Shown here: one piece after another, positions 1,345 to 32,866 of the stretch
Layout: each line of letters opens with the position of its first letter
Position numbering within the stretch: the first letter of the stretch is position 1
NCBI GenBank assembly: GCA_002687255.1
Contig: NYZR01000013.1
Coordinates: forward strand, 1 to 42,106
Direction of reading: 5' to 3'
Origin: Candidatus Pacearchaeota archaeon
GTDB taxonomy: Archaea > Nanobdellota > Nanobdellia > Pacearchaeales > GW2011-AR1
DNA length: 42,106 nt
Notes under the pieces: model-generated
Database searches by the model: none
Seen by the model: only the letters and a program-made list of their open reading frames with translations
Told to the model about the DNA's origin: nothing
Translations under genes and position numbers: made by a program

Positions 1345-3774
1345 ATGAAAAAATATGTTTATCGGATTGCGTCTGTTGTCGCGAGTGCGGCCCTTCTAGG
1401 TTCTACTGCAGCTTTGGCTGCCGCAGCAAGTTACCCAGCTCCTTTCGTTCAGAATGGTGCTGCTGATGTTGCTGTTGTTTGGGGTGCAAATGCTGCACCT
1501 ACTGATTTAGTAGCAGTGGCTGACATTACGTCTCACTTGCAGGCTGAGCTTGCTTCACAGACAGCAACCGGTGGCGGTACTGGTCCCTCCAGTGTATCTG
1601 GTGGTGATTTCGTTCAACTTTCTAAGTCGAGCGATAACATCAACCTGAGAGATAACGTGAACACCGTATTCGGTGCGACGGTCGATGATGAAGACCTGGG
1701 CACGTTGCTCGCAGATGGGACGTACCGTAACGACGAAAACACTGAGTTCGATTTCGAACAAAAGATTAGCCTTGGTACGAATTTGATTTTGAGCTTCTTT
1801 GCTGACTCGGACCACAATAGTAAGGAACCATCCGTTGGTTTCAACCTGAGCTCTAACGTTCATGTGTTGAACTATTCTGTTGATTTCCTAACTGATGCTG
1901 AGTCTGATGTGAGCGGCGGAGATCTTGTTGATATTGAGACGACTGATCTTACCATTCTAGGTAAGACCTACTACGTTCTTGACTTTGACAACTCTACGTT
2001 GAAGCTTACCCTTTTGGATTCTGCTGCCAAGCTAAATCTTGTTGAGGGTGCATCCGAAACTGTTTCCTTTAACGGAAAGAGTTACGATGTTAGTATTAAC
2101 TTCGTAGGATCTGCTACTCAAACAAGAATTAACGTGGACGGCGAAATCACTAACACACTAAATGTTGGTGAGACTTACCGACTGAGCGATGGAACGTATG
2201 TGGGTGTCAGAGATATCCTATACGACTCCAAAGACAGTGGCGTGAGCAAAGTTGACGTGAGCCTTGGTTCTGGTAAAGTAGAGATTGAGAACGCAGTGGA
2301 CATCCAGTTGAATGATGAAACCATTAGTGGTGTTTCTGGGTTCGTTGCACGAGGCTCCGTAACAGGAGGTAAAGAGACCATTGATAAAATCCAAATTGAA
2401 TGGAATACCGATGAAGAAGAGTTTGTTTCCCCAGGAAGCGACTTGACCTTCCCCGGCTTTGGTGCTGTAAAGCTCTCCATGGGAGAGTTTGTGCGACCTA
2501 CACAGGAAGTTATTGAAATCACGAATGATGGAACTGACTCTATGGAGTTGAAGGTTCCTATCAAAGACGGAACAGTAACAATTCCACTTCTTGGTGCTAA
2601 CTCGACAGGTGAATACGTCCGAATTGGTGGCGACGCAGCCGATCAAATCCTGAGAACTAAATCAGATGATCGAGCTAACTTGATCTTTAATATCTCTGCC
2701 TCAGGCAGTAGTAATAAGGACAAGTATTTTGTTGCTTCCTATAACACATCCCGTGACGCAGAGTCTTATCTCTTGCGAGCGAGTGTTGTGGTAAAGGACG
2801 GTAAAAACAAGACCACGGTTCAAAAGAACGTCGGTGGGACTTGGGTTGATACCTGTACTGATAAGTCCAACGGAGATAGTTGTAGTATCGGAAACGTAGA
2901 GTTAACAATTAACGATGTGTATAAGCTGAGTGATGACAAATATGTCAACTTCACCGCTGGTACCAATGTTGATTTCAACACCTTATTTACGAAGGAAGGT
3001 TTGGCTATTCACTTGCCTTATGAAGTGAACGGCTCTGGCTTGCTTGGTGGTGTTGGTACAATTAACTTTACACAAGGATCTGCTGTTGCAGGTCACAGTT
3101 CTGACACGTTCGATCTTACCTTCGTTGAGGAGGATAAGGACGGAAATGTTGGTGCTGGTAACCGATTCAACGTCACGTTGAATGATCAGTCTGACGGCGA
3201 TGTCGAAGTAAGCGCAATTGTTCCAGGTTCTGACACACACAAGGAGATAGATGACGACAACAATGTTGTTGCCCTAGTTCAATCTGATCTCGCATCTCAG
3301 ATGCGAAGGATTGGAGATTCTAGCTCCCAGCGACAAGCAGAAGTTACTTACTACGGTGAGGAAACTTATGCTGACGTCTTTTTGACTGCAGTTGGTGCCA
3401 ACGTAGTTGGTGGCGGCGGTAGTGGAGGCGGTTCTGTCCTTGGGTCAGTCTCTGTTTCAGATGCTGAAGTTGCTTCTGTTGCAGGTAAGAACTTGATTGT
3501 CGTTGGTGGTAGCTGTGTGAACAGTGTAGCTGCAGATTTGGTTGGCGGTGCTCTATGTGGTGCTGACTGGGAAGCTGCTACGGGTGTTGGCGCAGGTCAG
3601 TATTTGATTCAAACGTTCTCCCGAAGTGGGGGCAACGTTGCTACTCTTGTAGCAGGATACAATGCTGGTGATACTACGAACGCTGCTAAATACGCTACTA
3701 CCCAGACGGTTGATACGTCTGTAGGTAAGAAGTATGTCGGTACGACTGCCACAACTGCAAGCATGGTTGCTTAA
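1345..3774 (+). CDS. S-layer protein (archaeal S-layer N- and C-terminal domains)
   Basis: GGGGG Shine-Dalgarno before the ATG at 1345. Signal peptide MKKYVYRIASVVASAALLGSTAALAAAA. N-terminus reads YPAPFVQNGAADVAVVWGANAAPTDLVAVADI, and the C-terminus reads KNLIVVGGSCVNSVAADL...LVAGYNAGDTTNAAKY, both typical of archaeal S-layer proteins. Confidence 0.8.
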   Translation: MKKYVYRIASVVASAALLGSTAALAAAASYPAPFVQNGAADVAVVWGANAAPTDLVAVADITSHLQAELASQTATGGGTGPSSVSGGDFVQLSKSSDNINLRDNVNTVFGATVDDEDLGTLLADGTYRNDENTEFDFEQKISLGTNLILSFFADSDHNSKEPSVGFNLSSNVHVLNYSVDFLTDAESDVSGGDLVDIETTDLTILGKTYYVLDFDNSTLKLTLLDSAAKLNLVEGASETVSFNGKSYDVSINFVGSATQTRINVDGEITNTLNVGETYRLSDGTYVGVRDILYDSKDSGVSKVDVSLGSGKVEIENAVDIQLNDETISGVSGFVARGSVTGGKETIDKIQIEWNTDEEEFVSPGSDLTFPGFGAVKLSMGEFVRPTQEVIEITNDGTDSMELKVPIKDGTVTIPLLGANSTGEYVRIGGDAADQILRTKSDDRANLIFNISASGSSNKDKYFVASYNTSRDAESYLLRASVVVKDGKNKTTVQKNVGGTWVDTCTDKSNGDSCSIGNVELTINDVYKLSDDKYVNFTAGTNVDFNTLFTKEGLAIHLPYEVNGSGLLGGVGTINFTQGSAVAGHSSDTFDLTFVEEDKDGNVGAGNRFNVTLNDQSDGDVEVSAIVPGSDTHKEIDDDNNVVALVQSDLASQMRRIGDSSSQRQAEVTYYGEETYADVFLTAVGANVVGGGGSGGGSVLGSVSVSDAEVASVAGKNLIVVGGSCVNSVAADLVGGALCGADWEAATGVGAGQYLIQTFSRSGGNVATLVAGYNAGDTTNAAKYATTQTVDTSVGKKYVGTTATTASMVA

Positions 3775-3785
3775 TCTACCTTAAT

Positions 3786-3830
3786 GGGGCTTTTGCCCCT
3801 TTTTTCTTTTTTTTCTTTTTTCTTTCTTTT
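3786..3830 (+). terminator. hairpin plus long T-tract terminator after the S-layer gene
   Basis: GGGGC-TTTT-GCCCC stem-loop directly followed by a ~30-nt T-rich run. Confidence 0.5.
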
Positions 3831-3850
3831 CTCTCTCGGTTGAGGGAATG

Positions 3851-3858
3851 TTTTTATA
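3851..3858 (+). promoter_or_regulatory. TATA box for 3881..4495 (leaderless spacing)
   Basis: TTTTTATA lies 23-30 nt upstream of the ATG at 3881. The same spacing recurs at most first cistrons in the window. Confidence 0.45.
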
Positions 3859-3880
3859 GCCGTTCTTTCTTGGTGCTTGT

Positions 3881-4495
3881 ATGAGAGCAGTTGGCACAGA
3901 AGCGCAGCTTGATCGGAGTAGAAAGCGGAATGGGATTATTATTAGTGTGTTGATGTTAGTGTTGTTGGTGGCTAGCTCTGTTGGGTTTGCTTTTCTTTCG
4001 AGTAATCATACGAGTGGTTCTCAGCAAGTTGCTGGGTCTGAGGGCGCTTATGAGGGTTCTGGTGTTGGGGGTTGGGTAGTTCCTGTTCTTGGTCGGGAAG
4101 TAAGGTTGACGTTTGGTCTTGAAGAAGTTGCTGAGATCCCTGTTGCTTTGACGACAGGTATAGAAGCGTATCAAGGGAAGACCTTGTATCTTGCGGTGGA
4201 GAATCCTGGGATCGAGGCAGAGTTGCGGAGCACTATTGGAGTCTTCACTGATCGGATTCAATTGGCTTGCTACGGGGAATGTGAGTTGGATTTGCCGGAG
4301 AAGGATTGTTCGGAGAACGTGATTGTCTGGACGGATGGCGTTGCCGAAGCAAGTTCGGCAGGCCCTCGCAGCTCGGACAAGGTGAACGCTGCTTCGGACG
4401 TTGGCGGGCAGGTGACGCAGGGAGAAGGGTGTGTGTTTATTGAAGGAGATTTAAGGGCTGTTGATGCTTTTCTTTATAAGGTGTTTGGTTACTAA
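3881..4495 (+). CDS. membrane-anchored hypothetical protein (possible class III/pilin-like signal KRNG-IIISVLMLVLLV) carrying an in-frame repeat insertion
   Basis: 204-aa ORF with a TATA at -25, an N-terminal TM segment and a Cys-containing ectodomain. Paralog of 4565..5209. Confidence 0.6.
   Translation: MRAVGTEAQLDRSRKRNGIIISVLMLVLLVASSVGFAFLSSNHTSGSQQVAGSEGAYEGSGVGGWVVPVLGREVRLTFGLEEVAEIPVALTTGIEAYQGKTLYLAVENPGIEAELRSTIGVFTDRIQLACYGECELDLPEKDCSENVIVWTDGVAEASSAGPRSSDKVNAASDVGGQVTQGEGCVFIEGDLRAVDAFLYKVFGY
4343..4399 (+). repeat. structured 57-nt repeat, copy E1 (in frame, 19 codons)
   Basis: GCCGAAGCAAGTTCGGCAGGCCCTCGCAGCTCGGACAAGGTGAACGCTGCTTCGGAC. Near-identical to 36926..36982, and its core is related to 27934..27998 and 12286..12320. 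Confidence 0.7.
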
Positions 4496-5745: not shown

Positions 5746-6368
5746 TTTTTCTGTCTCTTCTTTTTGAGCAGATACACCAGGATAATCAGAAGGATAACTG
5801 CAAGCGTGGCCAGCGTTATGGTTGAAAGATGTTGATGCAAGACAGCTTCGTTTTCTCCGAAGAGTATGCCGAGGTAGACGAGGATGGCAGACCAGATGCC
5901 TGCTCCTGCTGCGGTGTATGCTATGAACTTGCCTAGGTGCATTTTGGCGAAGCCTGCCGGGAGAGAGATGAGTTGTCTGATGCCTGGGATAAGTCTGCCG
6001 GTGAATGTGGTGATGGCTCCGTGTTTTTGGAAGTAGTCATCTGACTTTTTGATGCTTTCATTTGAGATGAATAAGAACTTGCCGTATTTGTCTGCTAGTC
6101 TCGAGGCCGCTCTGCGGCCGAGATGGAGGGCGAGGGCGTAGTTGATGAGGGCTCCTGCGATTGAGCCGAGAATGGCTACTAGTAAGACTATGATGAAACT
6201 CATCTGACCACGGGCTATGAGGACGCCTGCGGGGATGAGTGAGGCTTCGCTCGGGAAGGGGATGAATGAAGATTCTATGGCCATCAGGATGAAGAGCCCG
6301 AGGTAGCCGAGGGAATCTATGAGAGAGATAAGCCATTCGAGTGCTTGAGGGATGAATTCTAGAGGCAT
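5742..6368 (-). CDS. dedA: DedA/SNARE-associated family membrane protein
   Basis: LGYLGLFILMAIESSFIPFPSEASLIPAGVL is typical of DedA, and there are multiple TM segments. Start placed at MPLEF (6368). The TGA stop overlaps the HAD ATG as ATGA. Confidence 0.75.
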   Translation of the reverse strand: MPLEFIPQALEWLISLIDSLGYLGLFILMAIESSFIPFPSEASLIPAGVLIARGQMSFIIVLLVAILGSIAGALINYALALHLGRRAASRLADKYGKFLFISNESIKKSDDYFQKHGAITTFTGRLIPGIRQLISLPAGFAKMHLGKFIAYTAAGAGIWSAILVYLGILFGENEAVLHQHLSTITLATLAVILLIILVYLLKKKRQKK

Positions 6369-6372
6369 GTGT

Positions 6373-6675
6373 TCAGGAAGGGGGGAAGGTATAAGAAGGT
6401 TCTTGTTTTGTTTTTTCTCTGAGTGCCTCAATTCTTTCTGTCGTTGATGCCATCTTTTTTCTATTGTTTCTGAGAGCCTCAGTTATCTCTTCAGTCATGA
6501 GAATTGCGCCACGGATGGTTGCTGCCCTTCGTTGTCCATGTGTGAGTAATTCCAGACCTTCTGGGAAATTATCCCCTGCCCCTGGACATTCATGATGCAA
6601 ATATCTGAGAAGATGCCCTTTGTGTTGGTCGGAGAGAGACCAATAGGCCTGTTGTATTGCTCCCAGATGTCCCAT
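6373..6675 (-). CDS. hypothetical protein (100 aa)
   Basis: ORF with a TATA (ATCTTATAAAC on the coding strand) about 25 nt upstream of its ATG. No family recognised. Confidence 0.45.
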   Translation of the reverse strand: MGHLGAIQQAYWSLSDQHKGHLLRYLHHECPGAGDNFPEGLELLTHGQRRAATIRGAILMTEEITEALRNNRKKMASTTERIEALREKTKQEPSYTFPPS

Positions 6676-6730
6676 TGAAGGTTATCTCTTTTTATGTTTA
6701 TAAGATTTTGCTATTTTCGAAAAATTCTCT

Positions 6731-14865: not shown

Positions 14866-15612
14866 TTATTCCTTCTTTTCTTCTGTTTTTGCATCAGCGT
14901 TTTCAGCTGGCGCCTCTCCTTCTGCAGGTGCTTCGCCTTCTGCCGGCGCTTCTCCATCGGCAGGAGCTTCAGCGCCATCTTCGCCTTCTGCTCCTTCGGC
15001 TGCCTTAGCGGCCTCCTTCGCCGCTGCTGCCTCCGCTTCTGCTGCTTCTTCCTCAGCCCTCTGTTTGTCTTGTGCCTTGGTGATCTTCTTGAATGCTGTG
15101 TCGAGTTTGGCTTTCTTTGTCGGATCCAGGTCTGTTTTTTCTGCGTTGATTTCTGTGTCAAAGTCTCCTTTGTCGATTGCTTTTTCTATGTCTGCTGCTG
15201 GTTTGCTTTCGATCAGAACGCCGAGGGAAACACAAGTGCCTACGACGGTTTTGACGGCTGCCTTGAGTGTTTTGTCTAAGAGATTAGGGAGTTTTGTTTT
15301 TGCGACGGCGATGACTTGCTCGATGGCGAGGTTGCCCACTTTATACTTGTGTGCTTCTGCTGATCCTTTTTCGAGTTTGAGTTCTTTCTTTACTAATTCA
15401 GATACTGGGGGAGAAGATACTGAGATTTCTACGGCTTTTGTGTCAGGATCTACGTCCAGGACGACGGGGACTTTCATTCCGGAGAATCCTTTTGTGGCTT
15501 CGTTGACGTCGGTGATTAATTGGCCGAGGTTGATACCTAAGGGGCCCAGCTGTTGTGCTACTGCCGGGCCGGGTTGCATCTTGCCGCCCTCAACAAGTAG
15601 TTTTACTTCCAT
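14866..15612 (-). CDS. rpl11: ribosomal protein L11 with a ~90-aa acidic/Ala-rich C-terminal extension
   Basis: MEVKLLVEGGKMQPGPAVAQQLGPLGINLGQLITDVNEATKGFSGMKVPVVLDV is canonical uL11. The protein is 248 aa, against roughly 160 for typical archaeal L11. Confidence 0.9.
   Translation of the reverse strand: MEVKLLVEGGKMQPGPAVAQQLGPLGINLGQLITDVNEATKGFSGMKVPVVLDVDPDTKAVEISVSSPPVSELVKKELKLEKGSAEAHKYKVGNLAIEQVIAVAKTKLPNLLDKTLKAAVKTVVGTCVSLGVLIESKPAADIEKAIDKGDFDTEINAEKTDLDPTKKAKLDTAFKKITKAQDKQRAEEEAAEAEAAAAKEAAKAAEGAEGEDGAEAPADGEAPAEGEAPAEGEAPAENADAKTEEKKE
14907..14978 (-). repeat. 18-nt coding tandem repeat (about 4 units, GEAPAE) in the L11 tail
   Basis: Units are gctggcgcctctccttct, gcaggtgcttcgccttct, gccggcgcttctccatcg and gcaggagcttcagcgcca. 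Together they encode APADGEAPAEGEAPAEGEAPAE. Confidence 0.7.
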
Positions 15613-16174
15613 TAGAATCCGTCCTCCAGTGGTAGAATGTTTCCTGTTCCGCCTTGGCCTGCGCTGAGGGCTGGGCCGTCTGTATCCTCTTCTTCCTTCT
15701 TCTCTTCGTCCTGCCCTTCTTCTCCTTCTTCTCCTTCTTCACGTCGGATCACTTTGATGTGCTCCATCTTTACGGTCACTGGGATGGGGACGGAGGCTCC
15801 GAGGAGGGAGACCACGACTTCGCCCTTTTGTTTGTCTACTCGTGTGACTTTTGCTTTTTCACCTTTGAGGTGTGACCAATCATTTCGACTATGTCATTTG
15901 CTTCGATGTTGACTTCCTCAGCCTTCGGCTCGAGCATGGATTGGACTTCTTCGTAAGGGACGTCTTGTCCTAATATGCCTTTGACGTAAGGGAGATTGTA
16001 AGCTGCTTCTTCTGCTGCGTCACGATCTTCTGCTTCTAGAATGAGATAGCCTTTTAGGCCGTGTGGTCTTACTACTGTTTGGACGGCTAATTGTTTCTTT
16101 CGAGCCCTGTCTGCGATCATCTCGAGTGCTCGGTCTTCTTTGTTTGTTGTTACTTTGATGATGTAGATTGCCAC
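15612..16174 (-). CDS. spt5: transcription elongation factor Spt5 (NusG): NGN + KOW, interrupted by a 1-nt frameshift, with an acidic C-terminal tail
   Basis: The NGN domain lies in ORF 15836..16174. The KOW sequence (KGEKAKVTRVDKQKGEVVVSLLGASVPIPVTVK) continues in the -1 frame down to 15612. The stop overlaps the rpl11 ATG as TAATG. Confidence 0.8.
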
Positions 16175-16265
16175 GGTGTTTCCACTACTTCGAGACTTTG
16201 AAAAAAGGAGAAGTAGATAAAGTTTGTGGTCTGGGAAGGTTTATAAATGTTCTGTTAGGCAAAGA

Positions 16266-16601
16266 ATGATGAAATGGAAACAGACCCATGTGCACTTAGA
16301 TTCTGGGTGGACAGGTCGCTTCGCTGCTTATAGTAAAAGGAGGGTGTCTCTTGCTGAACCTGAGAGAACTCCTTCTTATTGGGATCTCCCTAGAGAAGAG
16401 GTGATTAGCCCAGAAGAGGCTTTATTACATCATTGTGAATCGATGGAAGAGGAGATATTCTCTAGAGGAGGTTTTCAGATTGTTACAGAGAATGGTTTGA
16501 GGCAAATGAGTAGATTAAATTCTGAAATATCTATGGAGAATGTTGAAGCTCTTTATTTATCTGAACTCCGCCCTCATCAAGCTTCTCCAGATACTCTTTG
16601 A
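16266..16601 (+). CDS. hypothetical protein (111 aa)
   Basis: ATG lies about 25 nt downstream of GGTTTATAAATG. Its last ~20 codons lie antisense to the relic copy of the regulator's 3' end. Confidence 0.4.
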   Translation: MMKWKQTHVHLDSGWTGRFAAYSKRRVSLAEPERTPSYWDLPREEVISPEEALLHHCESMEEEIFSRGGFQIVTENGLRQMSRLNSEISMENVEALYLSELRPHQASPDTL

Positions 16602-16620
16602 TTCTGCTGACGGTTTGCGG
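16573..16620 (-). repeat. displaced copy (R1) of the 3' coding end of the wHTH regulator gene
   Basis: 40/48 identical to 17582..17629. On the minus strand it encodes PQTVSRIKEYLEKLDE, against PQTVSRIKEYLGKLDE in the intact gene. 7 of the 8 differences are synonymous. Confidence 0.7.
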
Positions 16621-16656
16621 GAAAGTGTTAAATAGTGTGGACGGCACTCTCCCTTC

Positions 16657-17091
16657 ATGGGCGGTGTTCAAGAGAAAGAAGATTCTGCGATCTTCTCCTT
16701 GAGACCCAGGGTAAGTGATATCGAAAATGGTGTCGCCTTCTTGGACTTTTTTAAGAATAGATATGACAACCCTATCGAGACTTTTAATTTTTGTAACTGT
16801 GTCGTTCTGGAAGCCCCGTATGTCCCACCAATTGAGTCTCCTGGAGATTATAGGATAAGATATTATGCAAACTTTGGTGGTGAAGACGAAGAGGGTTCAT
16901 CTTCGCTGGGGCTTATCCTTCCAGGAAGTTGCTTGATGCTAACTCTTGGGGACAGAGAGGGGTTTACCTTCCAGGATTCTTCCTTTAGTGGACGCCCTCC
17001 AGAGATATATTCTTTTCAGAGAGAGCACTTCAATCTTTTTGAGGTTTGTATTGAGGCAAGAAATGAGATCAATAGGATTTTAGAGAGTTAG
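16657..17091 (+). CDS. hypothetical protein (cassette gene 1)
   Basis: 144-aa ORF with its ATG 25 nt downstream of TTAAATAG. No family recognised. Confidence 0.5.
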   Translation: MGGVQEKEDSAIFSLRPRVSDIENGVAFLDFFKNRYDNPIETFNFCNCVVLEAPYVPPIESPGDYRIRYYANFGGEDEEGSSSLGLILPGSCLMLTLGDREGFTFQDSSFSGRPPEIYSFQREHFNLFEVCIEARNEINRILES

Positions 17092-17146
17092 TCTCCGAGA
17101 TTGGTGATGTATTCTTTGATTTTTCTAAAGGGAGTGCGATGACTAT

Positions 17147-17539
17147 TTACTGATTCTTAAGATCTTGTATCTCCTTGATCATTCCATCCAATCCGTGCTT
17201 CGCTACTTTCATTTCATCTATGTATCTTGCATCGTTTTCTTCTGCTATTCCTCTTGCGCTTTCTCTTGTAGAGAGCACCCAAATGTTTTTTGCTTCTGGA
17301 TCGCTTTGCCTGGTTTGCTTTATTGCTTCACCCACTAAGAGACTTGGGTTCTCTCCTGGTTTTTGGGGAAACTCTCCGTCTAGAAGATAGACTGTTGCTC
17401 TTGTGTCTTTTAGAAGTTCTTCAAATTCTTGCAAAGATCCAACTCCCCTATAGATTAGGGCTCTTCTACTCATTGCCTGCTCCACTGTGCCTCTAAGATC
17501 TTCAAGATCTTCGATGTGAATTACATCATAATGTTGCAT
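17147..17539 (-). CDS. stand-alone receiver (REC)-like domain protein (cassette gene 2)
   Basis: VIHIEDLEDL (acidic pocket), VYLLDGEFP (Asp57-equivalent) and IWVLSTRES (Thr/Ser position) fit a CheY-like fold. TTAAATAG lies about 25 nt upstream. Confidence 0.55.
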   Translation of the reverse strand: MQHYDVIHIEDLEDLRGTVEQAMSRRALIYRGVGSLQEFEELLKDTRATVYLLDGEFPQKPGENPSLLVGEAIKQTRQSDPEAKNIWVLSTRESARGIAEENDARYIDEMKVAKHGLDGMIKEIQDLKNQ

Positions 17540-17563
17540 CTTTCAGAGATTCTTGCAGCCTAT

Positions 17564-18025
17564 TTAAGAATTTGTGTGTTCTTCGTCGAGCTTCCCAAGA
17601 TACTCCTTGATTCTGCTGACAGTTTGAGGCAGCAAGAAGTTTTCTATTTTGGTTTCGAACAATTCGGAGAGGGGAGCGAATTCTGCTATTCGGTATTGGT
17701 TGTTGTGTTTGTCTACTAACATGGAGTCTCGGAGTCTTTTCAGCTGTCTTCTGATGTTGGATTCGGCTAGTCCTTTTTCGTCCAATGATTGTTCTTTTCG
17801 TTGGGTTTGGACTTGGTCACGGATTTGGAAGGAGGTGAGCCAGGTTTTGTTTTTTCTTGCTGCTTCTAAGACGTGGAGGATGTCGACCATGATGTCTCGT
17901 GAGTCTCCTGGTTGGAGGAGGCCTAATGATAAGCAGATTTTTCTCATAAGGTCTCTTGGCTGAGTGTCGTAGGGTTTTTCGTAGCGGCGGAGGGTGAGTT
18001 CGCCGAGGGGGGTTTCTTTTACCAT
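17564..18025 (-). CDS. archaeal wHTH transcription regulator (COG1318-like)
   Basis: LTLRRYEKPYD...ICLSLGLLQPGDSRDIMVDILHVL...SNIRRQLKRLRDSMLV is typical of a conserved archaeal HTH family. Confidence 0.65.
   Translation of the reverse strand: MVKETPLGELTLRRYEKPYDTQPRDLMRKICLSLGLLQPGDSRDIMVDILHVLEAARKNKTWLTSFQIRDQVQTQRKEQSLDEKGLAESNIRRQLKRLRDSMLVDKHNNQYRIAEFAPLSELFETKIENFLLPQTVSRIKEYLGKLDEEHTNS
17582..17629 (-). repeat. intact-gene copy (R2) of the duplicated regulator 3' end
   Basis: Partner of 16573..16620, and part of CDS 17564..18025. Confidence 0.7.
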
Positions 18026-18046
18026 TCTTCATTCAGTATATGAATT

Positions 18047-18055
18047 CTTATAAAG
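18047..18055. promoter_or_regulatory. single shared TATA element for divergent leaderless genes 17564..18025 and 18076..18435
   Basis: The CTTATAAAG core TTATAA is centred about 25.5 nt from both start codons (18025 and 18076). Confidence 0.4.
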
Positions 18056-18075
18056 CTAGTGGCTCTTTTCGGAGG

Positions 18076-18435
18076 ATGGAACTTGTTGCTTTTGTCGGGC
18101 CGGATCAGGAGAGTTGGGGGCAGATTACGGCGTTGATGAATCGGTTGCCGGAGTGTGAGAAAGTTGTTTTGGTTGTTGCCAAGGGTGTTTCTGGTTTTCC
18201 GGTTGATGGGAAGACGAACGTAGTTGAGGTTGATGCTTCGTTGCCTCTGGTGCAGTTGAAAGAGGCGATGTGGTCTGGATTGAAGAAGGAATTGGACGGA
18301 GCTTTTGAAGTTGCTGTGACCTTGGCTTCTGGAACGGGGAAAGATCATATGGCTTTGGTAGGGGCTTTGTTATCTGTTCCTGTGGGGATTCGGATTGCAG
18401 TGTTTACGAAGGAAGGGGTAAGGTTTGTTACCTAA
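18076..18435 (+). CDS. hypothetical small Rossmann-like protein
   Basis: 119 aa counted from MELVAFVG. Alternating beta/alpha pattern with an ASGTGKDHMAL motif. No family assigned. Confidence 0.5.
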   Translation: MELVAFVGPDQESWGQITALMNRLPECEKVVLVVAKGVSGFPVDGKTNVVEVDASLPLVQLKEAMWSGLKKELDGAFEVAVTLASGTGKDHMALVGALLSVPVGIRIAVFTKEGVRFVT

Positions 18436-19857
18436 TTATAAAAAGAGAAAGATCCACTTGACCATGAGGGCTGCTACTAACAAGAGGATGATCCAGGTTG
18501 ACCAGGCGAAGGCTTTTCGGCCGATTTTGTCGGAGCCTGTTAGGGCTGCGATGGTGAGGTAGAAGAAACGGCCGCCGTCAAAGATGCCTACAGGCAACAT
18601 GTTCACTAGGGCTACGGAGATGCAGATTAGGACAGTCCACCAGAGGAAGTTGTAGATGAACCAGCCGAAGTTTCCGAGTTCTGAAGTGTAGTAGACTTGT
18701 GGGTTTTTGATGAGGGTTCCGAGGTTGTAGACTTTGCCCATGAGGGAATCTCGGTTTTGAGGGATGGAGCCGATGCCGAGGAAAGCTACCCCTTGTCGGT
18801 CTGCTAATGTGAGAGATGTCGTGGTGATTTCGGCTTCGGTGGTTTGTGCGTCCTTAATGTAGGCTGTTCTGACAAGCACTGTTTGTCCGGGTTGGACGTG
18901 GTCACGGAGGGTGTGTTGGAGTTCTTCTAGAGAGGTGATCTCGTGATCGTCGATGTGTGTTATCGCCCCTGCGAGTTTGGCGTTAAAGGCAGGGGTGTCT
19001 GAGAAAGCTTCTATCTGTTCGATGCCTTGTTCCTGAGCTGCTTGGAAGAGTTGTGGAGAGGTGTAGTAGATTTCTTGTTCGAAGGTTATCGGTATGAGTT
19101 CTATCTCTTGATTGTGGAATTGTTGCGAGGTGAAGTTGAAGGCGGGGCCTGCTACCTGAGATTGTGCTGGCTGGATTGCAGAGACGGCGTAGGTGCTGAA
19201 GAGCACGCCGGCTGGTGTGAAGAATGCTGAGAAGAAGAGAAACATGATGATGGCGAAGAGTATTGTAGTCAAGACGTTGGCGAACGTGCCGGCTGCGAGG
19301 ATCGCCATTTGTGGCATCTTGGGAAGTTTATTCATGGCTTTTTCATCAGGCTCGACGAAGGCGGCGAGGAAGGGGCCGAGAAAGCCGAAGCCTGTGGAGT
19401 GGACTCTTAATGAGTTGAGTCGGGCGAAAATTCCGTGGGCGAATTCGTGAGGGATGGCTATGATTGCTATAATTAGGATCCAATACGTAAATGGAAAACT
19501 GGGGAGGAAGGAGATGTTGAACAGCTCTGGGAGGTAGGGGATGAGAGGGAGGAGGACGGGGACTTTGATCGCTGCGGCTGCTATCGGGGAAGTGAGGTAG
19601 ACCCAAGAGAATTGCAGGAGGAAGTAGATCATGGCCGCCATGAGGATGAATCCTGAGAGAATTACGAGGTATTGCGCTGGTTTGAGCCAGCTTGCGTGTT
19701 TTTTTGCGAACTCATCTATTCTTTTTACGCCCCATTGCGTTCGGTAGAGGTAGAGGAGGCCTTGTCTCTGCAAACGGGAGCGTTTGGCGTAGAGGAAGCC
19801 GACTACTAAGAGTGTGAATGCTGCTAAAAAGATTAGGTCGTAGATTAGGAAGCTCAT
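18436..19857 (-). CDS. site-2 protease (M50 family) with an inserted PDZ-like region
   Basis: HEFAHG (HExxH) lies in a TM segment, and the second motif is NMLPVGIFDGGRF. The protein is polytopic. Confidence 0.85.
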   Translation of the reverse strand: MSFLIYDLIFLAAFTLLVVGFLYAKRSRLQRQGLLYLYRTQWGVKRIDEFAKKHASWLKPAQYLVILSGFILMAAMIYFLLQFSWVYLTSPIAAAAIKVPVLLPLIPYLPELFNISFLPSFPFTYWILIIAIIAIPHEFAHGIFARLNSLRVHSTGFGFLGPFLAAFVEPDEKAMNKLPKMPQMAILAAGTFANVLTTILFAIIMFLFFSAFFTPAGVLFSTYAVSAIQPAQSQVAGPAFNFTSQQFHNQEIELIPITFEQEIYYTSPQLFQAAQEQGIEQIEAFSDTPAFNAKLAGAITHIDDHEITSLEELQHTLRDHVQPGQTVLVRTAYIKDAQTTEAEITTTSLTLADRQGVAFLGIGSIPQNRDSLMGKVYNLGTLIKNPQVYYTSELGNFGWFIYNFLWWTVLICISVALVNMLPVGIFDGGRFFYLTIAALTGSDKIGRKAFAWSTWIILLLVAALMVKWIFLFL

Positions 19858-19940
19858 TCGTTGAGTAGTAAAGGGGGGTTTTTAAGAGTTGTTGGAGGGC
19901 TAAGACATGGTTGTAAGAAAAAAGAAGTTCATAAACCTGT

Positions 19941-20681
19941 CTAATTTTTTTGCGGAGCTTCGCTTCTTTCGGAAGCTCGCAAACCTCCAAAGACAAAGCC
20001 GAAGTCGTAGCCGTCGCTCCTGCCGTAGCCATCGACACGCAACTGGCGGAAGCCCGTGTCGGCACTCAGCCTGACAACCCGGAGGAGCGTCTCTTGTGGA
20101 ATGTCGAAGCCCCCTACATGCACACCGTTGGTGTATTGTTCATCGCTTGCGAGTTCCTTTAAATTTAATGCGGTGCCTTTGGTATGTTCGAGAATATTTG
20201 CGAGTCCTTCGCTAGCGAATTTCCCTGCCTCTTGGATCCCTCTTGTGAAGGAGTCATATTCTGCGAAGCCGAAGTCTTGTTCTCCGAGGTAGATGTGTCC
20301 GTTGCTAAAAGGGATTTTTTCTGCTTGTTCGAGCTTTTTCTTGAATTCTGCTTCGCTTCGGACGTTGACAGCCACACCCTGTGGAGTCCTGGCGATTCGT
20401 GCAAGTTGGAGAGTCCCTGGGTTGAGGATTTTTTCTTGTGCTGACTTGATATCGTATGCCATCGCTTGTATTTGCTCTGAGGAAGTAAGAGGTTCAAAGG
20501 TTACGTCTGGTTGTTTTGCAGAGTGCCAGTAATGCTTCTGCATGTTTGCTTCGTTGGGATCGAGTGTTTCTGGTCCGAAGAGTGTGATGTCTCTTTTTTG
20601 TCCGTTGATTTCTATTTCTGGGAGGAGGTGAATATCTGGGAGCGCTGGTCTTTCTTCTGCTGTTCTCATTGCATATGCCAT
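19941..20681 (-). CDS. hypothetical protein (246 aa)
   Basis: ORF with TATTTAAAC about 25 nt upstream of its ATG. No family recognised. Confidence 0.55.
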   Translation of the reverse strand: MAYAMRTAEERPALPDIHLLPEIEINGQKRDITLFGPETLDPNEANMQKHYWHSAKQPDVTFEPLTSSEQIQAMAYDIKSAQEKILNPGTLQLARIARTPQGVAVNVRSEAEFKKKLEQAEKIPFSNGHIYLGEQDFGFAEYDSFTRGIQEAGKFASEGLANILEHTKGTALNLKELASDEQYTNGVHVGGFDIPQETLLRVVRLSADTGFRQLRVDGYGRSDGYDFGFVFGGLRASERSEAPQKN

Positions 20682-20789
20682 TGTTTCCTTTGCTCTCTGA
20701 GGTATTTAAACTTTTCTATTTGTTGTCCTTTCTAAGTTGTGACATTTTCTGATCGGAAGACTTAAATACTTTCTGTCTTACTTTCTTAC

Positions 20790-21047
20790 ATGGATGTGGA
20801 GTTTACTCGATTGTCCTCGAAAGGACAAGTGGTTATTCCTCGGAAGATTCGGGAGTCGTTGCACTGGGAAGTGGGCACGCCGTTTCGGGTGATGAAGGAA
20901 GGTGATGCAGTGATGATTGAGAAAATTGAGTTGGGAAGGAAGTCGTGGGATGAGGTGGCTGCGCCGTTTAGGAAAGCTGCTGAGGAAGCCGAGTTTACCC
21001 AAGAGGATTTATCACAGCTCATTCGTGATGTGCGTCGAAAGAAATGA
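20790..21047 (+). CDS. vapB: AbrB/SpoVT-type antitoxin
   Basis: MDVEFTRLSSKGQVVIPRKIRESLHWEVGTPFRV is a SpoVT/AbrB swapped hairpin. Its stop overlaps the PIN gene start as ATGA. Confidence 0.8.
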   Translation: MDVEFTRLSSKGQVVIPRKIRESLHWEVGTPFRVMKEGDAVMIEKIELGRKSWDEVAAPFRKAAEEAEFTQEDLSQLIRDVRRKK

Positions 21048-21460
21048 GAGTTGTGTTTGACACGAATGTCTGGCTTTCGGCGTTGTTTTGGAAGGGTGAG
21101 GCTGCTTCCTTGGTGAGATTGGCTGAACGGGGAAGAGTCGGAGTGTTCGTGAGTGAAGATTTACTTGCTGGGTTGGTTGAGGTGTTGCAGAAGGAGGCGA
21201 AGTTTCAGCAATTCTTAGGTGAGAGAAAGTTGGAGATTGAAGGGGTTGTTCGGGCGGTGCTTGATCTTGCCGATCTTGTGGATGTTCGAAGGAGGGTTTG
21301 TGTTGTTGAGGATGATCCCGATGATGACCGTGTGCTTGAGGTTGCTGTTGCTTCGGGGGCGAAGTATGTTGTTTCGTATGATCGACACTTGCTTTCTCTT
21401 GAGAAGTTTGATGGGATTGAGATGGTTCATCCAAAGGCATTTTTGGAGAGGTTATCTTAG
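21044..21460 (+). CDS. vapC: PIN-domain toxin
   Basis: MRVVFDTNVWLSAL...DDPDDDRVLEVAVASGAKYVVSYDRHLL shows the PIN acidic residues (TIGR00305-like). Confidence 0.8.
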   Translation: MRVVFDTNVWLSALFWKGEAASLVRLAERGRVGVFVSEDLLAGLVEVLQKEAKFQQFLGERKLEIEGVVRAVLDLADLVDVRRRVCVVEDDPDDDRVLEVAVASGAKYVVSYDRHLLSLEKFDGIEMVHPKAFLERLS

Positions 21461-21477
21461 AGAGATTTCATGAGAGA

Positions 21478-21538
21478 GTTATTCATTACACTATTTCTTC
21501 TTCAGAGGTCTGAAAGATTTGCCTTGGCAGCCCTTGCA
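21478..21538 (-). repeat. displaced copy (A) of the rpl40e 3' end (last 15 codons + stop + 14 nt)
   Basis: 55/61 identical to 22491..22551. It encodes CKGCQGKSFRPLKKK-stop, and all 5 coding differences are synonymous. Confidence 0.8.
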
Positions 21539-21545
21539 AAAACAA

Positions 21546-22454
21546 TTATCCATCGAGATACTTCTCAACAATATACTGCACGAATTCCCTCTCGTCTTTT
21601 TCGATTTGGTAGAAGTCGAGGGCGTTGTAGTAGGCTTCGAGGTCGGTGACTGGGATGTCTATTGGAGGATAGTTTTTTTTCCAGAGGATCCAGTTCATGA
21701 GGAGTCGTGAGAGGCGGGAGTTGCCATCGACGAAGGGCTGGAGTGAGATGAGTTTTGCGTGCACGAGTGCGGCGAGTTCGAGCGGATGAAGTTTTCTCTG
21801 GTGTTGTGCATACCATGACAGAAATTGATCGAGTTCTTTTTCGACGTGTTGCCATTTGGGCGGCAGGTAAATCGTGCCTGCGATCTTCACGTCCCTCTTG
21901 AGTTCACTCCTGAATTTTCCGGCGATGCTGTCGTCTATCCCTGCGAGCAGTGTTTTGTGTAATTTTTTGAGGAAGGCTTTTGTGAGAGGGCCTATGTATT
22001 GGGTGATCATGAGAAACCCTTTCTCGTGGTTTTCGAGTTCTTTGGCGATGCGTAGCGATTTCATTTCCTTCGGGATGATCCCTTCCTTCAGGATGAGGAA
22101 TGTCTGTCTTAATGTGACTGGAACGCCGGAGAGTTTGCTACTGTCGTAGGTGTATCTGATCATGAACTCTTCTTGCTTTTGTTCTCTCTCGGTCTTGCTG
22201 AGTTTTTTGAGTTCCTTCTGGTATGTTTCCTTTTTGTTCTCTATGTTTTTGACTATGTCGTCAGATAGGTAACGATGATTGTCTTTTTTGATGTCGTTGA
22301 GAAATTCTTCTTTCATTTTTTTTAGGTCTTCTTCTGGTGGAAGGGTCTTGCCTATATACTTGCTCTTTTGTCTGATGTTCTTCCCCTCCCTTATGTTGTG
22401 GACGAGGATCCAATAGGATTTCCCTTTAGTTGTTATCTTTCTTGCAAAAACCAT
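21546..22454 (-). CDS. Fic/DOC family protein with a degenerate active-site motif (QPFVDGNSRLSR)
   Basis: The Fic core is recognisable. The start is set at MVFARK (22454), 26 nt from the TATA GTTTAAATAT. The canonical HPFxDGNGRxxR has His replaced by Gln and GNGR replaced by GNSR. Confidence 0.8.
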   Translation of the reverse strand: MVFARKITTKGKSYWILVHNIREGKNIRQKSKYIGKTLPPEEDLKKMKEEFLNDIKKDNHRYLSDDIVKNIENKKETYQKELKKLSKTEREQKQEEFMIRYTYDSSKLSGVPVTLRQTFLILKEGIIPKEMKSLRIAKELENHEKGFLMITQYIGPLTKAFLKKLHKTLLAGIDDSIAGKFRSELKRDVKIAGTIYLPPKWQHVEKELDQFLSWYAQHQRKLHPLELAALVHAKLISLQPFVDGNSRLSRLLMNWILWKKNYPPIDIPVTDLEAYYNALDFYQIEKDEREFVQYIVEKYLDG

Positions 22455-22490
22455 GGGAAAGTTATTCACTACAGATATTTAAACCTTTTG

Positions 22491-22551
22491 GTTAGTCATT
22501 ACACTACTTCTTTTTCAGCGGCCTGAAAGATTTGCCTTGGCAGCCTTTGCA
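22491..22551 (-). repeat. intact-gene copy (B) of the duplicated rpl40e 3' end
   Basis: Partner of 21478..21538. The two copies are spaced 1013 nt apart. Confidence 0.8.
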
Positions 22552-22668
22552 GACGACTTTGCCGTTCAAGACCTTGAGGGAAGTGGTTCGGGTTTTTCGG
22601 CTGCACTTCTTGCAGACGAAGATGTTTTGGAAGAGTCGCTTTTGTGCTGCGGGGAGTTTTGTTGCCAT
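22504..22668 (-). CDS. rpl40e: ribosomal protein L40e
   Basis: A 54-aa ORF not in the supplied track: MATKLPAAQKRLFQNIFVCKKCSRKTRTTSLKVLNGKVVCKGCQGKSFRPLKKK, with a CxxC...CxxC pattern and a basic C-terminus. Confidence 0.85.
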   Translation of the reverse strand: MATKLPAAQKRLFQNIFVCKKCSRKTRTTSLKVLNGKVVCKGCQGKSFRPLKKK

Positions 22669-23317: not shown

Positions 23318-23338
23318 GCTTGGGTTTGGAAGGAAAGG

Positions 23339-23347
23339 TTTATAAAA
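23339..23347. promoter_or_regulatory. single shared TATA element for divergent genes eif5a (23317) and the REC gene (23368)
   Basis: TTTATAAAA is centred about 25-26 nt from both start codons, which are 51 nt apart, as at 18025/18076. Confidence 0.4.
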
Positions 23348-23367
23348 TTATGGTGGGGTGGGGTGAT

Positions 23368-23724
23368 ATGGCAAGAATATTGGTTGTTGAGAATGAGAGA
23401 GATTATTGGCAGGTTTTAGCATGTCTCTTACAGGAAGGAGGCCATCGTCCTTCATTTGCTGAAGATGATTGCAGAGGCCTTATTAAGCTTAGAGAAAGGT
23501 CTTTTGATGTTGCATTAGTGGATATGGGGGTTTCAACGGGTTTTTCTAATCGGGCGATAAATTATGCTAATGATGAAACACAGACGGTTCCCATAATTAT
23601 GTCTGGTCATGGTCAACAAATTGTTAGAACTCATTTTTCAGAGAAAGATTTTCCTTATTTCTTTTACAAACATCGTGAGGAAGAACTTAACCAAATTATA
23701 GAAGATGCTTTGTTTTCTAGGTAG
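23368..23724 (+). CDS. stand-alone receiver (REC) domain protein
   Basis: MARILVVENE, FDVALVDMGV (phospho-acceptor Asp), VPIIMSGHG and FFYKH (Lys) give the CheY-like signature. The acidic pocket is EN rather than DD. Confidence 0.65.
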   Translation: MARILVVENERDYWQVLACLLQEGGHRPSFAEDDCRGLIKLRERSFDVALVDMGVSTGFSNRAINYANDETQTVPIIMSGHGQQIVRTHFSEKDFPYFFYKHREEELNQIIEDALFSR

Positions 23725-31873: not shown

Positions 31874-32866
31874 ATGGCTGCTGAAAAGAAGTTAGGGGCT
31901 GCGCAGGTTGCGGCGTGGAAGACTGAGTCGGTGAAGAAGTTGGCGGAGCAGATGAAAGGAGCGAAGACGGTGTTGTTGGCCTCGATTAAGGGGTTGCCGA
32001 GCGGACAGTTCCATGCGATTAAGAAGCAGTTGCGAGGGAAGGCTGAGATTGCTGTGGGGAAGAAGTCTATTGTGTTGAGGGCGTTGGAAGCTACGGAGAA
32101 GGGGGCGCTGCAGAATTTGAAGAAGGAGATTGGAGCGGACATTGCGTTGTTGTTTTCTGATATGGATGCGTTTGCTTTGTCTGGGCTGTTGACCGAGAGT
32201 CAGAGTAAGATGAAGGCTAAGGTTGGAGATATTGCTCCGGAAGATCTGGTTATTGAGCCGGGGCCAACTGACATGTTGCCGGGGCCGGCGATTTCTGAAT
32301 TGGGTGCGGTTGGACTGCAGGTTGCTGTGGAGGATGGGAAGATTGCGATTAAAGCTGCGCATACGGTTGTTAAGGAAGGGGAAGAGATTTCTGCTAATGT
32401 TGCTGATGTTCTTGGGAAGTTGAATATTGAGCCAATGAAAGTTGGGTTCGGCCCTTTGGCTGCTTATGATGCTGAGGCTGATAAGGTGTATGTGGGTATT
32501 CGGATTGATAAGGAAGGTGCTTTGGAAGCTTTGCGAGAGGCTCTTGGGAAGGCTTTAGGGTTTGCTGTTTCTAAGAGGGTTATTAATTCTGGGACTGTGG
32601 GTTACTTTTTGGCGAAGGCGGAGGCTGGGGCTAAGGCGGTTGAGGGGAAGGTGCAGGAAGAGGGTTCTGAGTCTGAGGGGAAGGAAGATAGCTCTAGTGA
32701 ATCTTCTTCGGAAGGGAATAATGATAAGGAAGAACAACCGGGTAGTGAGGAAGGTGCTGGCGGGGATGATGGTGAGAATGGTGGGGATGCTGGTGCTGCT
32801 GAGGCTGATAAGGCTGAGGAGAAGAAGGAAGAATCAGATGAGGGGGGAAAGAAAGATGGCGATTAG
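31874..32866 (+). CDS. rpl10: ribosomal stalk protein P0 (uL10)
   Basis: AGGAGGT Shine-Dalgarno upstream. VAAWKTESVKKLAEQMKGAKTVLLASIKGLPSGQFHAIKKQLRGKA is typical. The acidic tail ends in KKDGD without the usual hydrophobic terminal motif. Confidence 0.9.
   Translation: MAAEKKLGAAQVAAWKTESVKKLAEQMKGAKTVLLASIKGLPSGQFHAIKKQLRGKAEIAVGKKSIVLRALEATEKGALQNLKKEIGADIALLFSDMDAFALSGLLTESQSKMKAKVGDIAPEDLVIEPGPTDMLPGPAISELGAVGLQVAVEDGKIAIKAAHTVVKEGEEISANVADVLGKLNIEPMKVGFGPLAAYDAEADKVYVGIRIDKEGALEALREALGKALGFAVSKRVINSGTVGYFLAKAEAGAKAVEGKVQEEGSESEGKEDSSSESSSEGNNDKEEQPGSEEGAGGDDGENGGDAGAAEADKAEEKKEESDEGGKKDGD

Follow-up and report, generated by a model that had tools for sequence, protein, structure and literature searches.

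How do two small genes come to lie between a conserved regulator gene and a second, partial copy of that gene's own 3' end? The arrangement occurs in the window, the whole 42,106-nt stretch of marine Pacearchaeota DNA analysed here. To our knowledge, little is known about accessory-gene gain in DPANN archaea, which have tiny genomes and are uncultured. Partial gene copies of this kind, called relics below, are dated, directional footprints of gene gain.

Codon-by-codon comparison of positions 16573-16620 with 17582-17629, the 3' coding end of the regulator, gives 40 identical bases of 48. A repeat search delimits the pair as listed in Table 1 (47 nt, 85% identity, spacing 1009 nt); blastn returns E=2.6e-8 for it, and a shuffle test of the regulator 3' end against the 3 kb downstream of the regulator gives z=22. 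Seven of the eight differences are synonymous, all of them at third positions, and the sole non-synonymous one exchanges G and E at a site that is variable across the family. The longest identical run is 14 nt. The relic encodes PQTVSRIKEYLEKLDE, followed by a tail of its own, GGVQINKELQHSP, and a stop at 16531; the relic-type regulator ending reads ...KLDEGGVQINKELQHSP. The 48-nt match with its synonymous bias, the separate tail and stop, and a copy spacing close to the 1013 nt of a second repeat in the window, at rpl40e and a Fic gene, had been described in an earlier sequence-only reading of this DNA and are all reproduced here.

Table 1. Features of the regulator locus and of the companion rpl40e/Fic locus, in window coordinates.
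Feature	Position	Strand	Remarks
Spt5 (NGN domain)	15612..16174	-	Pfam Spt5-NGN, synteny; conserved downstream anchor of the hot spot
orf110, doubtful 110-aa ORF	16269..16601	+	last 9 codons antisense to relic; DNA absent from L003
Relic tail GGVQINKELQHSP and stop codon	16531..16573	-	unrelated to the intact gene's tail
Relic, attR-like	16574..16620	-	second copy of regulator codons 133-148
geneA TTAAATAG box	16628..16635	+	22-29 nt upstream of geneA ATG; 8 nt off relic edge
geneA, 144-aa ORFan	16657..17091	+	convergent with geneB, own TATA box
geneB, stand-alone receiver (CheY-like) domain protein, 130 aa	17147..17539	-	co-directional with regulator
geneB TTAAATAG box	17560..17567	-	21-28 nt upstream of geneB ATG
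Intact regulator tail EHTNS and stop codon	17564..17582	-	non-homologous; cargo side of repeat
Intact target gene, 153 aa, conserved Pacearchaeota protein	17564..18025	-	probable winged-helix regulator
Left repeat copy, attL-like	17583..17629	-	codons 133-148 of intact regulator
Companion relic of rpl40e 3' end	21478..21538	-	z=38
Companion cargo, Fic-domain gene	21546..22469	-	NCBIfam and PADLOC Fic / SoFic; Pfam Fic on L004
Companion left copy	22491..22551	-	last 16 codons of rpl40e (22504..22668) and 13 nt past stop

The gene whose end is duplicated has 5753 homologs, most of them ~75% identical, with a conserved C-terminus, PQT[VI]ERIKEYLxKLD, and then a variable tail of 0-10 aa. None of the top homologs carries the tail of the relic. 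From its family matches, the protein is probably a winged-helix regulator: the Pfam matches are weak (HTH_45, HVO_A0261_N and ArsR), that to HTH_45 being sub-threshold (E=0.002; 18.6 bits vs a cut-off of 25.5), the family profile has no sequence match in the PDB, and two homologs carry the JGI name ArsR-family.

A duplicated gene end might be all that is left of a decayed full-length paralog, and a check for this had been set in advance by the sequence-only reading. For this check, tblastn and a profile HMM of 120 family members were run against all six frames of 16100-17563. The profile matches the relic at positions 132-148 only, that is, the last 17 positions, and a decayed tandem paralog is therefore rejected. 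Similarity upstream of 16620 is not significant (shuffle p=0.37 and 0.88), and a candidate extension of the relic into the geneA promoter (STLFNT vs SELFET, across a 6-codon gap) was discarded on that ground. The same values, with an HMM alignment that stops at 132, lend no support to the earlier proposal that relic coding sequence makes up the geneA TATA box. A third, older relic between geneA and geneB (17110-17131; KIKEYITNLGD) was likewise rejected, with p=0.14 and nothing found by HMMER.

The site without cargo is preserved in relatives. Locus L003, a relative at ~81% nucleotide identity, aligns to 18443-17580 and 16222-15620 of the window, and these anchors lie 295 nt apart vs 1358 nt in the window, in agreement with the ~1 kb cassette proposed earlier. 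The gene order rpl40e-M50-up131-regulator-Spt5-L11 is kept without the cargo genes in ~80 other Pacearchaeota loci, and no homolog of geneA or geneB was found in ~85 related loci. The window thus carries an insertion of ~0.96 kb, running from 17582 down to 16621 and holding two small genes. Eight further contigs (L004-L010, L096), obtained from several other samples and with other assemblers, show the identical structure. Within the species, neither an excised nor an empty allele was found: every contig with an identical regulator or rpl40e protein has the cargo.

The gap between the regulator and Spt5 is an insertion hot spot, occupied elsewhere by IS transposases and by a restriction-modification pair. 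Compared with L004, the Spt5 gene in the window has lost 1 nt at 15868 and is frameshifted. The doubtful orf110 is called as a gene on L004; it has a codon score of -0.16 and no family match in Pfam, NCBIfam or PADLOC, and homology to a 76-aa ORF (L001) or a 75-aa ORF (L003) downstream of the regulator was dismissed for want of similarity. The L003 spacer is unalignable to 16222-16573. This stretch beyond the relic, too, is missing from L003, so more than one event has shaped the locus. No known RNA family was detected in 16100-18100.

Gene-end duplication around cargo recurs at two other sites. In the window, the 3' end of rpl40e is repeated around the Fic-domain gene (61 nt, 90% identity, spacing 1013 nt, longest identical run 23 nt), and all five coding differences between the intact copy and the relic are synonymous. 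This parallel, already drawn by the sequence-only reading, is joined by a third, independent case at the distant locus L073, where the same regulator gene is followed by different cargo, a winged-helix gene and a DUF6036 nucleotidyltransferase; the L073 relic has many non-synonymous changes. The repeats of the three cases measure 47, 61 and 66 nt, and in each of them a compact cargo directly abuts the relic and pseudogene debris is absent. A scan of ~250 gene ends in ~85 loci yielded only these three relics at conserved gene ends.

Two of the three lie 4 kb apart in one genome, at the near-equal offsets of 1009 and 1013 nt, as might be expected if one linked replacement had made both. A ~4 kb fragment from a second strain, reaching from rpl40e codon 39 through the regulator, geneB and geneA, would then have replaced the recipient's M50-up131-regulator core, with illegitimate joints at both ends. 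We consider this very unlikely: it requires two precise illegitimate joints, both sparing essential genes, the equal offsets would remain a coincidence of cargo sizes, and a single site can evidently be hit by itself, as in L073.

Over both window repeats, 12 of the 13 coding differences are synonymous (P=2.7e-5 under neutral drift of one copy). This indicates that both copies evolved as functional gene ends, in separate lineages, and that the relic was displaced recently. The near-purely synonymous divergence of the relic is as expected for an origin in another lineage. The relic matches L003 at 41/48 and the resident copy at 40/48; with the intact copy, the relic and L003 all equidistant, distance singles out neither copy as the native one. 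The affinities of the regulator gene to L001 and L003 form a mosaic, a pattern suggestive of recombination among these lineages.

This synonymous bias also bears on a duplication in situ followed by drift, in the form either of a long target-site duplication or of a tandem regulator duplication whose upstream part was overwritten. Direct repeats that flank an insert do resemble a target-site duplication, and the L073 relic, with its many non-synonymous changes, would suit such an origin. However, the bias is hardly compatible with neutral drift of one copy (P ~3e-5), no paralog remains by tblastn or HMM, and there are neither terminal inverted repeats nor a transposase. In addition, 47-66 nt far exceeds any target-site duplication known to us. 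An origin in situ is thus highly improbable.

By strand, geneA and geneB are convergent, and not divergent as first described, which puts one promoter at either outer margin of the cassette. The TATA-like boxes reported upstream of each gene are borne out: TTAAATAG occurs four times in the window, where about one occurrence is expected, and all four copies sit 21-29 nt upstream of ORF starts. At the geneB edge, the regulator stop codon TAA (17566-17564) is embedded in the geneB TATA box, and the cargo side supplies the regulator's stop codon.

Taken in aggregate, these data favour, with a probability of roughly 0.6, an att-like single-crossover integration of a small cargo that brought with it a xenologous gene end. 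The ~0.96 kb of foreign DNA lies in the 3'-distal coding region of the conserved regulator gene. The incoming DNA, presumably a circular intermediate, would have contained its own version of the 16 repeated codons, derived from another lineage. One reciprocal crossover of the att or Campbell type, between this version and the chromosomal gene end, would then produce a functional gene with cargo-side last codons and stop, followed by the cargo and by the displaced second copy of the gene end, seen as the relic. The catalyst may have been a site-specific recombinase supplied in trans to a cassette without an integrase gene. Alternatively, host homologous recombination may have exploited the homology of the conserved gene end, and we lean slightly towards the latter because the two window repeats share no core.

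Several elements of this proposal have precedents. As in archaeal integrated elements, direct repeats flank the insert, one of them over the 3' end of a conserved gene; an element-side stop codon restores the reading frame; and relatives have an empty site, with orthologous genes targeted by unrelated elements across lineages (Krupovic et al. 2019, PMC6563490). Crenarchaeal att sites are reported at 29-69 bp (PMC6563490), a range that includes all three repeats described here. Unlike those elements (PMC6563490), the insert is just ~1 kb and lacks integrase and replication genes, the repeats reach 85-90% identity instead of matching perfectly, and the host is a DPANN archaeon with two sites in one genome that have no common core.

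Searches for mobilisation machinery found no integrase, transposase or Cas1 gene in the three inserts or among ~45 scanned window ORFs, and no terminal inverted repeats at the cargo ends. Neither a common sequence nor a strong attC-like hairpin is evident in the repeats. A recombination core shared by the two cassette boundaries, as the sequence-only reading envisaged, did not emerge, the regulator and rpl40e repeats having no common k-mer of 6 nt or more. Neither the gene-end motif nor geneA occurs on viral contigs, and no phage or plasmid matches were obtained; the geneB alignment is too diverse for a locus scan. The lack of a recombinase gene, of an excised allele, of a viral or plasmid carrier and of a core common to the two repeats counts against the favoured reading, as does the absence of 16222-16573 from L003. 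So does the 14-nt longest identical run, which is short for homologous recombination and uninformative for a site-specific core.

A Campbell-type single crossover duplicates a homologous segment around the insert, needs no dedicated recombinase and leaves both repeats as donor/recipient hybrids. Measured against that model, the homology here is short (47-66 nt), and its identical runs measure 14-23 nt. Like homology-facilitated illegitimate recombination, the process is known mainly from laboratory suicide vectors and bacterial natural transformation, and we know of no report that cassettes spread naturally in this way among DPANN archaea.

Homology-facilitated illegitimate recombination could itself have acted here, on linear DNA from a related lineage and with no mobile element. 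The donor would have had geneB and geneA natively just downstream of its regulator; one end would have recombined homologously within the regulator, and the other would have joined illegitimately in the recipient's last 16 codons, duplicating them. Such an event would suit the absence of a recombinase gene and of a core common to the two window sites, as well as the mosaic affinity of the regulator. The stop codon within the TATA box resembles a natively evolved compact gene junction, and the synonymous-only divergence fits equally well. Yet in all three events the joint lies within the final 16-22 anchor-gene codons and directly abuts the end of the last cargo gene. Random illegitimate joints would be expected to scatter, so this clustering counts against the proposal. 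No donor regulator-geneB junction was found among the 5753 homologs or the 85 loci, and recombination of this type usually yields deletions, not duplications. We regard it as unlikely, while giving it some weight.

Less probable still is that the inserts are remnants of larger integrase-encoding elements, such as proviruses or plasmids, which kept attL and attR and lost all but the useful cargo. Islands formed by site-specific integration commonly contain degenerated elements and partial copies of the target gene (doi 10.1101/2020.12.28.424599; PMC6563490), and DPANN genomes are streamlined and presumably deletion-biased. Against this stand the compact cargo, flush with the relic and free of pseudogene debris in three of three cases, and the state of the window relics, which have no frame-breaking change and at most one non-synonymous change. 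Relics so nearly intact must be young, leaving little time for clean erosion.

Integrase-less cassettes have counterparts elsewhere. CIMEs (cis-mobilizable, integrase-less elements) and integron cassettes are small cargoes between recombination sites that are mobilised by a recombinase encoded elsewhere, and the window inserts are likewise small cargo units bounded by repeats. Unlike integron cassettes, they have no attC-like hairpin and no common site sequence, and no integron integrase or helper was found; where those cassettes are promoterless, both cargo genes here have TATA boxes of their own. In contrast to both systems, the sites are the coding ends of different genes. Casposons and other transposons are marked by short identical target-site duplications, terminal inverted repeats and a casposase or transposase, whereas the window inserts have no short identical duplication, no inverted repeats and no transposase or Cas1. 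Those elements also insert at the 3' ends of conserved genes, for example ef-2 (PMC6563490). In Prochlorococcus genomic islands, partial tRNA copies mark the integration of tycheposons (doi 10.1101/2020.12.28.424599). The likeness to tycheposons lies in accessory or defence-like cargo within a streamlined marine genome; the difference is that tycheposons have tyrosine recombinases and use tRNA/tmRNA genes, whereas here protein-coding housekeeping genes are targeted and a recombinase is lacking.

At these loci, core genes such as rpl40e and a universal regulator are entry points, immediately behind which accessory genes of the signalling, Fic or toxin-antitoxin-like kind are gained. The relics show that the donors were related lineages and that one and the same event brought in the DNA and repaired the core gene. 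If integrase-independent, this would be a simple and general route of cassette exchange in streamlined genomes, with a searchable signature: a partial 3' gene copy with synonymous-only differences, 1-2 kb downstream of the intact gene. A broader and rather doubtful extension is that Pacearchaeota host integrase-less cassettes of ~1 kb, or multiples of it, that use the last 16-22 codons of housekeeping genes as homology handle and spread by single crossover between lineages. Each cassette would complete the target gene with a stop codon of its own, which in the present case is merged with the cargo promoter, and the gene end that it displaces would persist as a relic. The cassettes would represent a recombinase-independent or host-recombinase-dependent system, functionally parallel to integron cassettes and tRNA-targeting islands.

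As to the cargo, the label "receiver-like" given to geneB is upheld. The protein has 83 distant relatives, and Pfam Response_reg matches 18 of the 46 that were aligned; comparison with response regulators in the PDB gives E=5.6e-5. An AlphaFold2 model (pLDDT 97.8) finds only receiver domains among its top Foldseek matches (TM 0.6-0.72, prob 1.0); a single-sequence AlphaFold2 model was uninformative (pLDDT 49). D11 and D54 are nearly invariant in the family, as is a Lys column near residue 109, which by our reading corresponds to K111 in geneB. On the modelled structure and these residues, a true receiver fold is confirmed for geneB, of the (beta-alpha)5 type with acidic pocket, Lys and a predicted phospho-acceptor Asp. 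An ORF at 23320..23724 was considered as a geneB paralog in the window and set aside as not closely related. For geneA, no homologs beyond same-strain copies were found among 5.8 billion proteins, and there is no match in Pfam, NCBIfam or PADLOC; with a codon score of ~0, its coding status is plausible. The codon log-likelihood ratio of geneB is gene-like (+0.21). GC3 is 0.41 in geneA and 0.33 in geneB, vs ~0.5 for core genes.

The ~1-kb cassette at the 3' end of the regulator gene in this marine Candidatus Pacearchaeota (DPANN) genome is an insertion. L003, the closest relative with flanking DNA (86% protein and ~81% nucleotide identity), aligns to window positions 18443-17580, which contain the regulator and the neighboring gene up131, and to 16222-15620, at Spt5; the distance between these anchors is 295 nt in L003 versus 1358 nt in the window. 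Together with the cargo-free loci and the lack of any remaining paralog, this essentially upholds the sequence-only reading of an inserted cassette bracketed by a duplicated regulator 3' end. The DNA between the second copy of that end (the relic) and Spt5, 16222-16573, is likewise missing from L003; therefore, more than one event has occurred at the locus. Eight further contigs, which represent several different samples and assemblers (Tara scaffolds, k127 'marine.metagenome' assemblies, NODE-type assemblies and an NCBI record), have the identical structure down to the cargo/relic junction; it is not an assembly artefact. Within 16100-18100, no known RNA families were found, and phage and plasmid collections gave no match to the region.

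In the 24 genome loci and 61 metagenome loci compared, the common gene order is rpl40e, M50 peptidase, up131 (opposite strand), regulator, Spt5 and L11. The regulator-to-Spt5 gap varies from -17 to 1928 nt among these loci and is therefore a general insertion hot spot. In other Pacearchaeota it holds DDE transposases of IS elements (L013 4878-5786; L069 4604-5503), a BglII-type restriction-modification pair (L035 2356-3786) and unknown genes. None of the compared loci contains homologs of the cassette genes geneA and geneB, the doubtful ORF orf110, Fic or the 246-aa gene p246. Immediately past the regulator homolog, L034 (4524-5054; ~120-nt units coding a repeated peptide) and L029 (6204-6762; 74-nt units) carry long repeats in tandem or near tandem. 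The rpl40e-to-M50 gap is 10-60 nt nearly everywhere and ~2650 nt in the window. There (19858-22503), Fic and the relic of rpl40e share the gap with the unknown 246-aa gene (19941..20681) and a toxin-antitoxin pair of the AbrB/PIN type (20790..21460), in effect a small selfish or defence-type gene island. Relative to L004, from the same population, the window Spt5 (15612..16174, minus strand) is missing the base at 15868; this separates an NGN portion of 112 aa from a KOW portion of 67 aa, and the cause is a strain-level frameshift or an error of assembly.

Features of the window locus and of the related groundwater locus L073
Feature	Coordinates	Strand	Remarks
L11	14866..15612	-	
Spt5-NGN	15836..16174	-	
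Regulator repeat pair	16574-16620 / 17583-17629		47 nt, 85% identity, spacing 1009
geneA	16657..17091	+	144 aa
geneB	17147..17539	-	130 aa
Regulator	17564..18025	-	
M50 peptidase	18436..19857	-	
rpl40e repeat pair	21478-21538 / 22491-22551		61 nt, 90% identity, spacing 1013
rpl40e	22504..22668	-	
L073 regulator	3480..3944		
L073 relic	5911-5976		66 nt, 79% identity, spacing 2036
L073 cargo 1			144-aa unknown; its ATG overlaps regulator stop
L073 cargo 2			215-aa winged-helix protein
L073 cargo 3			226-aa DUF6036 nucleotidyltransferase (toxin-antitoxin-like)

The regulator belongs to a highly conserved family (5753 matches, mostly ~75% identity) whose C-terminus, PQT[VI]ERIKEYLxKLD, is followed by a variable tail of 0-10 residues. 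At 100% identity, the window protein matches the NCBI entry 'hypothetical protein CMI48_01880 [Candidatus Pacearchaeota archaeon]', and it is also present in Tara and ENA. A direct-repeat search of the window identifies the regulator and rpl40e pairs (blastn E=2.6e-8 and 1.5e-17) as the two strongest repeats within 3 kb, low-complexity acidic-tail repeats excepted. A 55-nt repeat of 95% identity (32779-32833 / 33743-33797) codes the common acidic C-terminal tails of the ribosomal stalk proteins L10 and L12; it was rejected as an insertion relic, being ordinary paralogy. Codon by codon, the regulator copies differ at 8 of 48 positions, seven of them synonymous third positions; the sole exception is a G/E change at a family-variable position. 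The rpl40e copies differ at 5/48 coding positions, all synonymous, and at 1 of 13 nt past the stop. The longest identical runs are 14 nt (regulator) and 23 nt (rpl40e), and the two repeats share no 6-mer. The relic encodes PQTVSRIKEYLEKLDE, after which a separate tail, GGVQINKELQHSP, runs to a stop at 16531. The 40/48 match, the synonymous 7/8, the divergent tail and stop, and the near-equal spacings of the two pairs had all been described from sequence and are recovered here.

The profile alignment of the relic region proposed with that reading bears on whether the relic is a decayed full-length tandem paralog. By tblastn the regulator matches only over residues 120-148 at best, and a profile HMM built from 120 members of the family and searched, every filter disabled, over six frames of 16100-17563 matches profile positions 132-148 only. 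Tandem duplication followed by decay is therefore unsupported; that candidate is rejected, and insertion stands.

The coding differences are informative about the history of the copies. Taken over both window repeats, 12/13 are synonymous, as compared to ~21% expected of random changes in these codons and ~35% if one copy were free and the other constrained; the chance of at least 12 is 8e-8 and 2.7e-5, respectively. Both copies therefore diverged as functional gene ends. The latter value makes duplication in situ with subsequent drift very improbable. This pattern constitutes clear evidence that one of the two gene ends came from another lineage; the copies derive from different but related lineages, the relic having been only briefly out of service. 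Consistent with separate histories, the relic is about equally near the L003 gene end (41/48) and the resident copy (40/48), and all three carry the rare Val-Ser-Arg codons of the marine subclade. The regulator gene itself is mosaic in affinity, its informative sites siding with L001 at gene positions 164-222 and with L003 at 255-321, which suggests recombination within the gene between related lineages.

When each locus's own regulator 3' end was compared with the 3 kb downstream, one more clear case emerged (z=17): L073 (Ga0209542_10005100), a groundwater Pacearchaeota contig whose regulator is 71% identical. It adds a third, independent instance of this architecture, at the orthologous gene; its relic has many non-synonymous changes and is older than those of the window. 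Among 189 other conserved gene ends, the same scan found only the window rpl40e relic (z=38). The architecture, at ~3 in 250 gene ends, is therefore rare, yet recurrent. The window genome contributes two of the three cases, 4 kb from each other, which would fit a single linked replacement producing both relics; we nonetheless regard this as a far-fetched explanation. In all three, the cargo begins with a gene in the orientation of the target and ends with one flush with the relic. The latter observation argues against erosion of a once larger element, an improbable origin. The spacings (1009, 1013 and 2036, or 2 x 1018) form a pattern that, spotted post hoc with n=3, may be coincidence. Between L12 and the gene for a nucleoside phosphorylase in L075, a 50-nt direct repeat of 90% identity (6088-6137 / 6653-6702) surrounds a gene of 101 aa and a tRNA-like stretch; no gene 3' end is involved, and this may be another bracketed insertion.

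The order of intact gene, cargo and displaced gene end, with discrete repeat edges, is exactly what a single reciprocal crossover would yield between the chromosomal site and a copy of it on incoming, presumably circular, DNA. Of 68 thaumarchaeal integrated elements, 14 are inserted at protein-coding gene 3' ends; unrelated archaeal elements target orthologous genes, can exchange the target stop codon for their own, and in crenarchaea use att sites of 29-69 bp (PMC6563490). The present locus resembles these in its gene-end target, element-side stop and repeat length and, with L073, in the unrelated cargo at orthologous genes. Unlike them, the inserts are 1-2 kb and integrase-free, and two sites in one genome lack a common core. 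No recombinase gene is present in any of the three inserts, and ~45 scanned window ORFs include no integrase or transposase. Given the geometry and these likenesses, we therefore favor integration, by a single crossover of att or Campbell type, of small cargo DNA bearing the gene end of another lineage (probability about 0.6). Catalysis may have come from an integrase supplied in trans to cassettes that lack one, or from the host's homologous recombination with the conserved gene end serving as the handle; we lean slightly toward the latter. The weightiest rival, though an unlikely one, has linear DNA of a related lineage joined homologously on one side and illegitimately on the other; the eroded element ranks next, and duplication in situ and linked replacement rank last. 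The locus is best filed under a known type of footprint, the att-like partial gene duplicates left by integration; new here is a cargo that is unusually small, lacks an integrase and sits at protein-coding housekeeping genes in a DPANN archaeon.

The TTAAATAG box occurs four times in the window (~1 expected), in each case 21-29 nt before the start of an ORF; one copy precedes geneA and another geneB, in agreement with the boxes first noted there. The genes had been read as divergent; they are instead convergent, with promoters at the outer edges of the cassette. Nor is the proposal that the geneA TATA box is built of relic sequence supported, as similarity stops short of the box (p=0.37, 0.88); the family HMM alignment to the relic ends at profile position 132. 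At the other edge, the regulator's final five codons (EHTNS) and stop lie on the cargo side, outside the repeat, and the TAA forms part of the geneB box. Cargo GC3 is 0.33-0.41 versus ~0.5 in core genes. geneA is an ORFan matched only by same-strain copies and has a neutral codon score; geneB scores like a genuine gene. orf110 (16269..16601), antisense to and overlapping the relic, was predicted as a gene on one contig, but its codon score is poor and no relatives were found.

The description of geneB as receiver-like is confirmed. Word-indexed search matches geneB alone; full HMMER finds 83 distant relatives of ~125 aa, whose alignment retains D11 and D54 and an almost invariant Lys column near residue 109 (K111 in geneB, by our reading). 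Pfam Response_reg is matched by 18/46 relatives, the profile of the alignment matches solved response regulators (E=5.6e-5), and an AlphaFold2 model from the relatives' alignment (pLDDT 97.8) retrieves receiver domains as all top Foldseek matches in the PDB. A second small ORF, 23320..23724 (+), has a weak Response_reg match (E=8e-4) and was rejected as a close geneB paralog. In another archaeal contig (L097, 2676-3410), the closest relative of geneB (34% identity) immediately follows the gene for ribosomal protein S10; no relic of that gene's end was detected, and a Fic gene lies 1.5 kb from this relative.
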